From: Candidatus Saccharimonadota bacterium
GTDB taxonomy: Bacteria > Pseudomonadota > Gammaproteobacteria > Enterobacterales > Enterobacteriaceae
DNA length: 32,000 nucleotides
Reading direction: 5' to 3'
Assembly: GCA_002688505.1 (NCBI GenBank)
Contig: CP024013.1
Location: 1 to 32,000 of the forward strand
The position numbers and the translations under genes are program-made. How positions within the stretch are numbered: position 1 is the stretch's first letter; each line of letters starts with the position of its first letter. The notes beneath the pieces were generated by a model. It did not search any database. It saw only the letters and a program-made list of their open reading frames with translations, and had not been told where the DNA came from. Positions 1-10,700 of the stretch are shown piece by piece.

Positions 1-60
1 TTAAAAATAAATAATATAATAATTTATAAATAATATTATTAAATTAAATAAAATTAAAAA

Positions 61-1581
61 ATAAATAAAAATATAATTATAATAATAAAAAAAATAAAAA
101 AAAATATTAAATATATAGAAAATAATAATTTTAAACAAACTTTTAAAACTAATTATTTTAAAAAAATATCACAATTATATAAAAAATACTTAAAAAAAAA
201 AAAAATATCTATATTTACATATAGTAAATATATTACATTAATTAGAAAACAATTTATAAAAAAAAAACATCATAACTTAAATAAAAATTTAAATTTATTA
301 TGTAAAAAATTTAAATATTATAAAAATGAAATAAATAAATTAAAATACATATCAACTAATTTAATATTTAAAAAAATAAAAAATATAAAAAAAAAATTAT
401 CTAAAATTAAAATACTTATAAAATTTTTAAATAAAATAAAATTAAAAAATAAAAATAATATATATAAAATAAAAAAAATTATAAAAAAAATACCAGAATG
501 AAAAAAAGAATTAAAAAAATTAATAAAATATAAATGATATAAATCAAATAAATTAATAATTAATAAAATTCAACAAGGTATAAAATTATTTAAAATAATA
601 AAAAAATTAAAAATAAATCATGAAATTTTATTTCATTTAAAAATTGAAAAAAATAAATTATTATTAATAAAAAAAAAATCTATAAAATCCTTAAAAAAAA
701 AAAAAAATAATACAATTAAAATAAATTATAAAAATTATATTACTAAAATATATAATATATTTAATAATATATCTGAATTAAAATCATTTAATGATATATC
801 TTCATTATGTTTTGCTCTATCAGCAATATCTGGAAGAAGAATGATAGAAATTATATATAGAGGTAAATTTAAAATTTTTAATAAAAATAAATTATACTTT
901 AAGGGACAAGTTAAAAATAAAAAAAAAAAAATATATAAAATATATACTTTATTAAATACTAATATTTTTATGAAAAATATTAAAAAACTAAGATCATGTG
1001 AAATTATTAAAAATATTTTAAAAAAAACACAAAATAAAAAAAATAGATTAATATCAAAAAATGCACAAATAAGTAATTATATATCACCACACTTAAATAA
1101 ATGAGTAAAAATTTTTTTCAATGATAAAACAAGAACATATAAAGATAGTAGATCTATTTATGCTCGTATAACATTTAAAAAATGATTTAATAATGATAAA
1201 AAATGAAAATTTAAAGATGAAGATATATTCTTTAGTAAAATTTTAGGTCATAAAAATATAAATAGTCAAATGTATTATAAACAATTTAAATTACAAAATT
1301 TTTCTAATAAATGAAAACCTAAAAAATATAAAAATTTAATATTAAAAAAATTAAAACTATTAGATAATAAACTTAATAAAATAATAAAAAGAAAAAAATC
1401 ATATAAAATACATTATATTACAAAAAAAATTATAAAAATAAACCCTAATAAAAAAATCACAAGTTACTTACTAAGAAAATATGGTTTTAATACTAAACTA
1501 ATACAAAGATACATTAAATTTATATCAAAATATATAAATAATAATAATAAAAAAAAATATAATAAAATAATTATTAAATAA
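61..1581 (+). CDS. telN: Protelomerase / hairpin telomere resolvase, TelN/TelK family (about 506 aa)
   Basis: Frame 1 is open from 58 to TAA 1579-1581 when six in-frame TGA (499, 535, 1102, 1183, 1204, 1312) are read as Trp. Track ORF 841..1104 is only an internal piece. The translation tracks my recollection of phage N15 TelN along its length: KIKKIIKKIPEW, QQG..LKINHEILFHL, LCFALSAISGRRMIEI, IYTL...LRSC, KWVKIFFNDKTRTYKDSRSIYARI, KDEDIFFSKILGH..SQMYYKQFKLQNFSNKWKP, ITSYLLRKYGFNTKLIQRYIKF. The Arg/Lys/Arg/His residues and the nucleophile Tyr are all present. Five of the six TGA fall where TelN has Trp. There is no in-frame ATG upstream of 841, so the start is probably ATA 61 or a nearby ATA/ATT. 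The 5' boundary is uncertain. Confidence 0.8.
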
Positions 1582-1699: not shown

Positions 1700-2707
<1,008 letters not shown>

Positions 2708-7862: not shown

Positions 7863-10538
7863 TTACAATCTTTCTTTTATACAATTTCAAATATAATCAA
7901 AAATTAAATATCTATTTATATTATCATAATTTATATAAAATATATTAATATTAAAACTTTTGTTTTCAGTAATAAAAAATTTATTAAATACTATTTTTTT
8001 ATTTAAAAAATTAATTTTAATTATTTTAAAAATATCTTTTAAAATATTTTTTTTAATTAATAATATAAAATATAATTTATCATTAATTAATGTAGATATA
8101 AATATTATATATAAATTATATTTAAAAAATAAATTTTTTAATAAAATAAATAAAATATTTTTATCAAAAAAATCAAAATTTAATTTATTATTTAATAAAA
8201 TTTTATAATTTTTAATAATAAAAATATTTTTTTTATTATTTAAAACACTTATTATATTTTTAATAAAAACATTTTTAATATTTCTATTTAAATTATTTAT
8301 ATTTTTATTCTTATTAATTAATAATTTTATTTTATTATATACATAATATGTATTTATTTTTAAAATATTACTAATTTTATTTAAAATATATTTATTATTA
8401 TTAATATAAAATAAAACATTTAGATAAGTAATTGCCTTAATTCTTTTAACACCAAAAGATATATTATAATTACTTATAATTAAAAAAACACCTATATCTT
8501 TACTATTTAATACATGAGTACCACTACAATATTCACTAGAAATACCATCTATTTCAACTAACCTAATAATATTTTTACCAAAAAAATTAAATTTATCTTT
8601 AAATAAAATATTATTTTTTATATATTTGTTTTTAATATTCAAAGATTTTCAAATATAATAATTAACTAAATTTTCTATTTTTAATATAATATAATTATTA
8701 ATTTTATTATTATAAGAAATATCTAAAGTAAAATAATCTTTTGTAATATTTGAACCATTAAATAAAATTTGTTTACCTAAAATAATCTTTAATATTGAAC
8801 ATAAAATATGTAAACAAGAATGATTTCTAGATATTATATTTCTATGTTCAATATCATAATAACATTTAACATAATCATTAATCTTTAAAACACCATATAT
8901 CATATGTCCATAATGTATAATATAATTACCTATTTTTATAGTTTTATATACAATAAATTTAGCACTTTTATCTAATTTAATTAATAAACCTATATCACCA
9001 GACTGACCAGAAGATTTAGGATATAAAACAGTTTTATCTAGTATAATACTACAATTTGATTTTAATATAGTTTCTTTAATTAAATTATTTTCATTAAAAA
9101 TAAATAAAATTTTAGATAATATTTTAATTTTATTAAAACCTAAAAATTTAGTTATATTTAAATTATTTAAAATATTTAAATCAACAAAATATTTATTATA
9201 AACTTTTTTTTTTTTATTTGAAATTTTACATAAATTTTTTATTAAATTTAATCTAACATTAAATTTATCTAAATTTATAGATATATTATAATATTTACAT
9301 ACATCAATTAATATATATAAAGGTAATCCATATGTATCATATAATAAAAAAACTATTTTACTACTTAAATAATATTTTTTTTCTTTATATAATTTACTTA
9401 TATAAGTATTCAATATTTTTAAAGAATTATCTATAGTTTTAAAAAATTTATTTTCTTCACTTAAAACAATATTATTAATAATTTTTATATTTTCAATTTT
9501 TAAAAAACTAAAGTCATATACATTACTTAAAACATTATTAACAATTTTAAAAAAAATAATTTTATTTATATTTAAAAATCTAATATGTATTAAAGCTCTT
9601 CTAATTATTTTTCTTAATATATAACCTCTATGTTCATTAGAAGGATATACACCATCTATTATTAAATATATAATAGCTCTAATATGATCTGAAATAACAT
9701 TAAAATTATTTAAATTGTTTTTTTTTATTTTTATACTTAAAATATCTGAAATTATATTTTTAATTTTTAAAAAAATATCAATATCAAAATTAGATTTAAC
9801 ATTTTGTAATATAGAAACAATTCTTTCTAAACCCATACCTGTATCTACACATTTATTTGATAAAATATTTAAATTATTTTCTATATCTAAATTAAATTCT
9901 AAAAAAACTAAATTTCATATTTCTAAAAATATATTTTTATTATTTACATAAGAAATATATTTATTTTTATTATTACTATATAAATTATAAAAAATTTCAG
10001 TACTATAACCACATAAACCAAAATCACCCATTCTTCAAAAATTTGAAGAATTTAAAGTTGAATTACCAACTAAAAAAATCCTATTTTTATGTAATTTAAT
10101 TATGTTAAGTCAAATATTATATGATTCAATATCATTCTTATGAACAGTTACAATTATATTATCTTTATTTAAACCAAAATAATTTTTATTAATTAATAAA
10201 TCTCAAGCATAAACAATAGATTCCTTTTTAAAATATAATCCAAAACTAAAATTACCCATCATTTCAAAAAAAGTATTATGTCTATAAGTATATCCTACAT
10301 TTTTAAAATCATTATGTTTACCACTAACTCTTAAACAACGTTGAATACTAACAAAATTTTTATCTAAATCTTTTCTAATACCTAAAAAAAATTCTTTAAA
10401 TTGATTCATACCAGCATTAGTAAATAATAAACTATCATCATTATTAGGTATTAAACTACTACTACTGACTATAGTATGATTATTATATTTAAAATAATTT
10501 AAAAAAATATTACGAACATCATTAGAATTAATAGTCAT
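7863..10538 (-). CDS. alaS: Alanyl-tRNA synthetase (891 aa)
   Basis: Track ORFs 10203..10538, 8649..9836 and 7887..8642 share one frame and are joined by TGA=Trp. N-terminus is [15 protein letters not shown]...[35 protein letters not shown]. The editing/Zn motif HSCLHIL...CSGTHV is present. True stop is TAA at 7863-7865. Confidence 0.95.
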
Positions 10539-10700
10539 ATTATAAAATTATTAAATTTAATTTAAAATATACTAAATTATAAATAAAAAATAATAAATAA
10601 TAAAATAATATATTAAATAAAATTATAATATAAAATTATAAATATATATAATTAATTTAAAAAATAAAAAATTTATTATTATTAATATAAATATATAAAA

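Follow-up and report, generated by a model that had tools for sequence, protein, structure and literature searches.

To our knowledge, the usual assumption about tiny-genome obligate symbionts of insects is that they keep circular chromosomes and have shed all of their mobile-element genes. What role, then, could a phage-type protelomerase gene play as the first gene of such a chromosome? The gene in question, tel, opens the 32,000-nucleotide (nt) stretch of DNA analyzed here (the window, positions 1 to 32,000 of CP024013.1), which comes from Candidatus Stammera capleta, a leaf-beetle gut symbiont with a chromosome of ≈271 kb (271,175 bp; sequencing run SRR6147586). Stammera, which lives in cassidine leaf beetles, derives from the Enterobacteriaceae. 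An earlier annotation made from the letters of the window, hereafter the original prediction, had proposed an intact protelomerase and a linear, hairpin-ended chromosome. Our analysis leads us to the same reading, to which we assign a probability of roughly 85%: the window represents the left tip region of the Stammera chromosome, a linear molecule whose two ends are hairpins closed covalently, and tel is a domesticated protelomerase of the N15/phiKO2 type. Support for this topology is in silico and comes from sister strains, in the form of palindromes, fold-backs, terminal inverted repeats, and NNNNN gaps.

With TGA read as tryptophan, an open reading frame (ORF) extends from position 58 to 1581 on the forward strand, and alignment to relatives sets its start at 61. 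The tel gene (61 to 1581, forward strand, genetic code 4) thus comprises 506 codons from an ATA start to a TAA stop at 1579 to 1581 and encodes a protein of 506 residues. Three protelomerase domains were recognized in this product, each with a Pfam gathering score of 27 bits as the cut-off: the TelK muzzle domain (PF20849; 268 to 618, forward; 52.9 bits, profile positions 2 to 118 of 118), the ResT/TelK catalytic domain (ResT-TelK_cat, PF16684; 709 to 1287, forward; 84 bits, profile positions 1 to 181 of 181), and the TelK stirrup domain (PF20818; 1333 to 1527, forward; 33.7 bits). The same scan returned no Phage_integrase-type domain at E ≤ 1. In a PDB sequence search, the TelK chain 2v6e_A was the sole match (E = 7.4e−89, residues 43 to 491), and the product also matches phrog_5272 (E = 2e−113). 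Its best phage relatives are N15 TelN, which is the top match, phiKO2 TelK, and PY54 Tel. Tel ends shortly after the stirrup, without the C-terminal domain PF22853 found in the phage-type homologs P0018 and P0019.

The window strain's own Tel is not in the protein database, in which the closest entry is 85% identical. The predicted structure of an 85%-identical ortholog, P0001 (predicted local distance difference test score, 86.9), matches TelK chain 2v6e_A with E = 5.5e−28 and template modeling scores of 0.74/0.70. The next-best structures are TelA and then ResT, at 15 to 19% identity in the structural alignment, whereas XerH, Cre, and FLP match the model only at E ≥ 0.15. No NCBIfam model fits the tel product, and its homologs are unnamed in the protein collection, so the gene is probably labeled "hypothetical" in public records.

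The catalytic residues of TelK, which we take to be R275, K300, R383, H416, and Y425, all have counterparts in the alignment. These are R260 (838 to 840), the second arginine of SGRR; K285 (913 to 915), within GQVK; R364 (1150 to 1152), within KDSRSIY; H397 (1249 to 1251), within ILGH; and the predicted nucleophile Y406 (1276 to 1278), within MYYKQF, with every codon on the forward strand. The five positions are conserved in 16 of the 17 aligned homologs; R260 is kept in those 16 of 17, and K285 is invariant in all 17. The original prediction had described a TelN-like protein of ≈500 residues with the motifs SGRRMIEI, KDSRSIYARI, ILGH, and SQMYYKQF and with TGA at tryptophan positions of TelN. 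The Pfam, PDB, and phrog_5272 matches confirm the first part, and the four motifs are all present. Of the six in-frame TGA codons (499, 535, 1102, 1183, 1204, and 1312), five align with tryptophans of TelK; the UGA-as-tryptophan code of Stammera has already been published (PMC8629427). As judged by sequence and structural modeling, then, the tel product is a TelK/TelN-type protelomerase, with a predicted cleaving-joining activity, and not an ordinary integrase or Xer recombinase. The original prediction had singled out this distinction as a check, and the comparison falls on the protelomerase side.

The sister genomes provide the candidate substrate. A conserved palindrome is always found 35 to 150 nt from tel; perfect palindromes with arms of 29 to 115 nt (at least 250 nt in L030) lie immediately upstream of the gene, at a distance of 35 to 96 nt, and a target palindrome adjoining tel was seen in at least 17 sister strains. 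Read from the center outward, the half-site is ATGTATATTTAT(W3)ATATGTTACAAT. Across 17 strains whose remaining intergenic DNA is unalignable, the box ATATGTTACAAT hardly varies. The Stammera half-site aligns without gaps with the telRL half-sites of phiKO2 and N15, with GTATA at positions 3 to 7 and TA.TATGT at positions 14 to 21. Most of the variation within the palindrome falls in its central 6 bp (CATATG, TAATTA, or CAATTG in Stammera; CGCGCG in N15). By analogy with TelK, we infer that these 6 bp are the interval between the two Tel cuts. In the Stammera of Cassida vibex, the closest relative of the window strain, the palindrome center lies ≈126 nt before the ATG of tel.

This palindrome is also where the public assemblies stop. 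At least 15 public records contain an NNNNN gap exactly at the palindrome junction. The methods of the Stammera authors describe assembly with MEGAHIT, mostly into one contig, followed by rotation to the oriC defined by guanine–cytosine (GC) skew, which indicates that the NNNNN gaps are the original contig ends. In six sister strains, both sides of the gap fold back, and the two arms share only a perfect terminal inverted repeat of 25 to 35 nt; in L020, the arms share just 10 nt. On both arms, the fold-back reaches 5 to 46 nt past the shared repeat into the arm-specific flank. Because the palindrome arms thus extend into their own flanks, the structures represented are R-T-R′ and G′-T-G, not R-T-G. 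Two such fold-backs abut in L028 and L035, both of which are "complete" records, with arms of 71+30 and 71+37 nt, respectively. A 2020 record, CP043978.1, has tel at its start and, beyond cspA, terminates in the palindrome; independent Logan contigs begin or stop 0 to 15 nt from the palindrome center. In the C. vibex Stammera, the terminal inverted repeat spans ≈150 nt, starting at the tip and extending 11 nt into tel; one Logan contig begins exactly 30 nt (k − 1) inside it. Finally, GC skew changes from positive to negative across the junction in 23 of 23 genomes, with negative skew in the window, which identifies the chromosome ends with the replication terminus.

The plasmid of the C. vibex Stammera, CP043979.1, serves as a control. 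We considered whether it might be a linear replicon sharing the telomere and rejected this possibility, as its ends overlap directly and the palindrome is absent, as in an ordinary circle. In this record (L041, 5,564 bp), the same ≈55 nt stand at both ends, a remnant of an assembly overlap, and PLSDB lists zero annotated features for it.

For the window strain itself, the telomere box was recovered on the arm opposite tel. That arm, aspS-ruvC-cspA, is carried by a Logan contig from the same run (L045) that ends …ATAATGTAACATATAATATAAATATATATAT/ATATATATTTATATT, comprising the telomere box, the palindrome center, and 15 more nt, with the core alone recovered on this arm. The original prediction had proposed looking for the same terminal sequence in inverted orientation at the other chromosome end; it is found as terminal inverted repeats in the sisters and as this telomere box in the window strain. 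Positions 1 to 17 of the window match the other arm at 99 to 116 nt from the contig end with one mismatch, and since a 17-nt match of this kind has a chance rate of ≈3%, we regard it as a weak hint. In this clade, the tel-side tip probably lies ≈125 to 145 nt upstream of tel (an estimated ≈140 nt for the window strain), beyond the first base of the record. A search for it among the window-strain contigs did not recover it; the adk contig (L042) stops ≈5 kb short, and the rnt protein is unrecorded.

The observations that weigh against a linear, Tel-resolved chromosome concern either the topology or the tel gene and its flank. With respect to topology, the evidence comes from assemblies, and within the shared core, a short-read graph presents a hairpin and a circular palindrome alike. 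The L018 record is closed across the junction through a single R-T-G palindrome. In L014 (CP144787.1, labeled "complete genome"; 9305 to 9593), ruvC is joined to tel by 290 nt and the palindrome is absent; this strain may be a true exception, or its ends may have been trimmed prior to joining. In CP144771.1 (L040, 9869 to 11422; protein P0015), the substitutions R260K, R364I, H397Y, and Y406Q appear in both the NCBI and the Logan assemblies. Several of these points would suit a circular chromosome, in which the palindrome is an ordinary inverted repeat of the terminus and Tel is a relic or has another job, such as site-specific nicking or topology control: the de Bruijn graph of the shared core is identical for both topologies, two records are closed across the junction, and a strain with a dead active site survives. 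The source papers, moreover, treat the genomes as single chromosomes with oriC set as for circles. We nevertheless consider a circular chromosome improbable, although it is the best of the alternatives. A circle with one R-T-G junction cannot yield G′-T-G and R-T-R′, and fold-backs that pass 5 to 46 nt beyond the shared repeat require reads of exactly these two kinds, so the fold-backs point to linear ends. In addition, at least 15 genomes were left unclosed by their authors at exactly this point, and a functional TelK-type enzyme acting on its palindrome linearizes a circle by definition, as illustrated by Escherichia coli with tos and TelN (PMC5862497).

The remaining adverse points relate to the gene and the window. 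The tel start codon at 61 to 63 is ATA in the window, whereas every relative has ATG, and no ATG, GTG, or TTG follows in frame until codon 261. The ATA may represent a non-canonical start, a base-call error, or a poorly translated gene; we presume that the ATA-started gene is expressed in the window strain. The description of the gene as intact in the original prediction therefore stands with respect to the unbroken reading frame but not with respect to the start codon, at which ATA replaces the orthologous ATG. The leader upstream of tel (1 to 60), which forms the apparent left end of the public record, has neither a GTTAC box nor a palindrome, and alignment of positions 1 to 60 to the closest relatives, performed in search of a telomere half-site, likewise revealed no GTTAC box. 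The telomere motif is absent from the 32-kb window as a whole, in which the longest perfect palindrome has 11-nt arms. In four strains, the tel frame is broken by 1-nt changes in poly(A) length (L029 at 10381, L036 at ≈10600 to 10645, L039 at ≈1040 to 1076, and L031 at ≈244 to 281). These breaks could be sequencing errors or frameshifts rescued by slippage as in other A+T-rich symbionts. Given that they are single-base poly(A) indels, we rejected the interpretation of these four interrupted ORFs as pseudogenes. The short tel ORFs of L019, L023, L024, L025, L032, L034, and L038 were likewise not taken as pseudogenes, since an NNNNN gap falls in their 5′ part.

The strain of CP144771.1 deserves separate comment. 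The original prediction had reasoned that sister strains with the gene pseudogenised or absent, and no change in topology, would refute it. CP144771.1 comes close to this, as its copy is catalytically dead; its contig, however, still opens with a 115-nt fold-back palindrome bearing the telomere box. The persistence of the fold-back despite the dead active site hints at a second way of resolving telomeres. More broadly, comparison of the sequences indicates that the ends of these chromosomes are recombinationally dynamic, with terminal inverted repeats ranging from 25 nt to more than 2 kb. Depending on the strain, the tel gene resides on either the gapA arm or the ruvC arm, and cspA is present on either arm or on both. 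The terminal repeat reaches kilobase scale in L029, L030, and others, where it includes tel and/or cspA, with tel lying inside it in L029 and L030.

A less probable explanation still, and in our view a very unlikely one, is that the palindromes are library or assembly artifacts, such as chimeric inverted reads. Some contig ends do bear traces of such processes. Illumina adapter remnants are present at two chromosome ends, at 9790 to 9823 of L016 (CP144850.1), 7 nt short of the palindrome center, and at 1 to 35 of L017 (CP043980.1). The end of L026 (CP043985.1; 1 to 790) consists of ≈790 nt of non-Stammera DNA of normal guanine-plus-cytosine (G+C) content beyond tel and looks chimeric. The arms are also mostly 71 nt or shorter, which may reflect a k-mer limit of the assembler. 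Several observations argue against an artifact. At least 15 strains, each sequenced independently, have palindromes at this one locus, and two separate assembly pipelines recover them. Their sequence is conserved and telRL-like, and directly beside them lies the one gene that encodes an enzyme making structures of this kind. CP043979.1, a plasmid from one such strain, has no palindrome.

If tel works at the chromosome ends, is it a resident of the chromosome or a recent visitor? All 31 Stammera chromosomes retrieved in a scan of species-representative genomes (212 to 314 kb) carry tel, and gene positions around the arm junction, mapped by tblastn with default statistics, place it between the same core genes throughout, always as the first gene inward from the junction. 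The G+C content of the window is 8 to 25%, and that of tel is 8 to 15%, like that of the neighboring core genes. Over 10 to 20 kb, the flanks of tel contain gapA, ibp, rnhA, rnt, aminoacyl-tRNA synthetase genes, and recA, and cspA, ruvC, aspS, and argS; no phage structural, repA, partition, or repressor genes were found within 10 to 20 kb on either side. Between strain pairs, the ratio of nonsynonymous to synonymous substitution rates (dN/dS) of tel is 0.20 to 0.39, compared with 0.15 to 0.48 for gapA, rnhA, and rnt, and its dS equals theirs. The resemblance of both measures to those of the neighbors indicates that tel has diverged together with the genome under ordinary purifying selection. 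On these sequence comparisons, tel is resident and old in the Stammera lineage. Three statements of the original prediction are upheld here: that the gene was not recently acquired (31 of 31 chromosomes, between the same core genes), that gapA follows it directly with other phage genes lacking, and that its function is under selection, with a dN/dS equal to that of gapA, rnhA, and rnt. A separate linear plasmid-prophage of the N15 kind, carrying tel with its palindrome and mis-joined to chromosomal contigs, is suggested by the phage-plasmid origin of the closest protein relatives (N15, phiKO2, and PY54) and by the N15/phiKO2 tel site likewise lying upstream of the gene (190 to 192 nt from the ATG). 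This idea is scarcely credible given that tel is contiguous with gapA or cspA-ruvC in 31 NCBI records, as it is in independent Logan contigs as long as 50 kb, shares its 8 to 15% G+C content and TGA-as-tryptophan usage with the adjacent core genes, lacks phage or partition genes within 10 to 20 kb on either side, and has the dS of its neighbors.

Within the window, the first core gene inward of tel is gapA (1700 to 2707, reverse strand), as identified by its ORF and by synteny. Synteny with L001 and with the same-strain contig L042 indicates that at least 20 kb beyond gapA contain core genes only. Between the convergent tel and gapA genes, the sequence contains a stem-loop with a 9-bp stem, AATGAATCT-aaataa-AGATTCATT (1652 to 1675), which judging by its sequence is probably a bidirectional terminator. 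A different inverted repeat, GTGAATTATTTAAATA…TATTTAAATAATTCAC, is conserved after cspA or tel in many strains (L003, 2589 to 2653; L045, 2985 to 3049; L046, 10863 to 10927). Both these repeats and the differing stem-loop of the window are probably terminators.

Together, these observations suggest how a linear Stammera chromosome would be maintained by Tel. Replication would start from an internal origin and proceed outward to both ends, and copying around each hairpin would generate a perfect palindrome, the replicated telomere junction, of the form …TTGTAACATAT-N4-TAAATATA-(6 bp)-TATATTTA-N4-ATATGTTACAA…. A Tel dimer on this palindrome would then cut both strands 6 bp apart via Tyr406 and rejoin each strand to its complement, producing two hairpins and separating the daughter chromosomes. 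The chromosome ends would accordingly be covalently closed, and linearity would presumably have replaced dimer resolution and decatenation at the terminus. As for the origin of the system, we think it likely that a Stammera ancestor captured a single N15-like protelomerase together with telRL, that the main chromosome was linearized at its terminus, and that the arrangement has been inherited genus-wide since the Paleocene, an age taken from the title of 10.1101/2023.12.12.571295.

A linear main chromosome does not seem to have been reported for Stammera. A full-text literature search, which did not extend to the genome papers published in Cell (2017) and Current Biology (2020), found no paper on a protelomerase, a resolvase, telomeres, or a linear chromosome in Stammera, and the 2023 Stammera preprint makes no mention of any of these. 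The mechanism as such is familiar from N15, phiKO2, Agrobacterium, and Borrelia; what is surprising is the host setting. If our reading is correct, Stammera has the smallest known linear bacterial chromosome (0.21 to 0.33 Mb) and offers the first natural example of chromosome maintenance in which a core gene encodes a phage TelK/TelN-type enzyme. A phage gene would thereby have apparently turned into indispensable housekeeping and been retained for tens of millions of years amid genome loss. A linear chromosome would also account for the dozens of public Stammera genomes that resisted closure and have NNNNN at one spot, and the topology and annotation of these records would need to be corrected. 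It further raises the testable idea that linearization at the terminus frees a shrinking genome from dimer resolution and decatenation. The combination of a compact, AT-only telomere with a 506-residue enzyme amounts to a minimal protelomerase system of possible biotechnological use.

The closest known counterparts of the Stammera system are those of N15 and phiKO2. Stammera Tel shares with TelN and TelK the muzzle-catalytic-stirrup architecture, the same catalytic residues, and 41% identity in the catalytic core, and the host lineage is in each case Enterobacteriaceae. The target palindrome is positioned directly upstream of the gene in both systems, which makes the gene the first at one end, and the half-sites are in register with telRL. 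Unlike the phage enzymes, however, Stammera Tel would serve the main chromosome of a cell instead of a prophage, with no other phage genes nearby. It is also shorter (506 residues rather than ≈630 to 640), without PF22853, and is read in code 4. The Stammera telomere is almost pure A+T, with the CGCGCG center replaced by CATATG, TAATTA, or CAATTG, and its tip lies 35 to 150 nt from the start codon, compared with ≈190 nt in N15 and phiKO2.

An engineered parallel exists in E. coli, in which a strain with its chromosome linearized near dif by means of TelN and the tos site of N15 is viable (PMC5862497, citing Cui et al. 2007). The protelomerase site of Stammera is likewise located at the replication terminus, as defined by skew. 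In contrast to the engineered strain, of which it would be the natural counterpart, the Stammera chromosome would be naturally linear, ancient, and fixed, in a genome of 0.21 to 0.31 Mb. With Borrelia ResT and Agrobacterium TelA, Stammera shares the use of a dedicated telomere resolvase on cellular replicons that have hairpin ends, predicted in the case of Stammera, and terminal inverted repeats of ≈25 bp. The Stammera enzyme differs in belonging to the phage TelK/TelN subfamily with muzzle and stirrup domains, to which ResT and TelA are far more distant. Among obligate bacteria with small, A+T-rich genomes, "Candidatus Phytoplasma mali" has a linear chromosome with terminal inverted repeats, and snap-back has proven that its ends are hairpins (PMC2459194). 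Stammera differs in having a genome less than half as large as that of "Ca. Phytoplasma mali" and in containing an unmistakable protelomerase.

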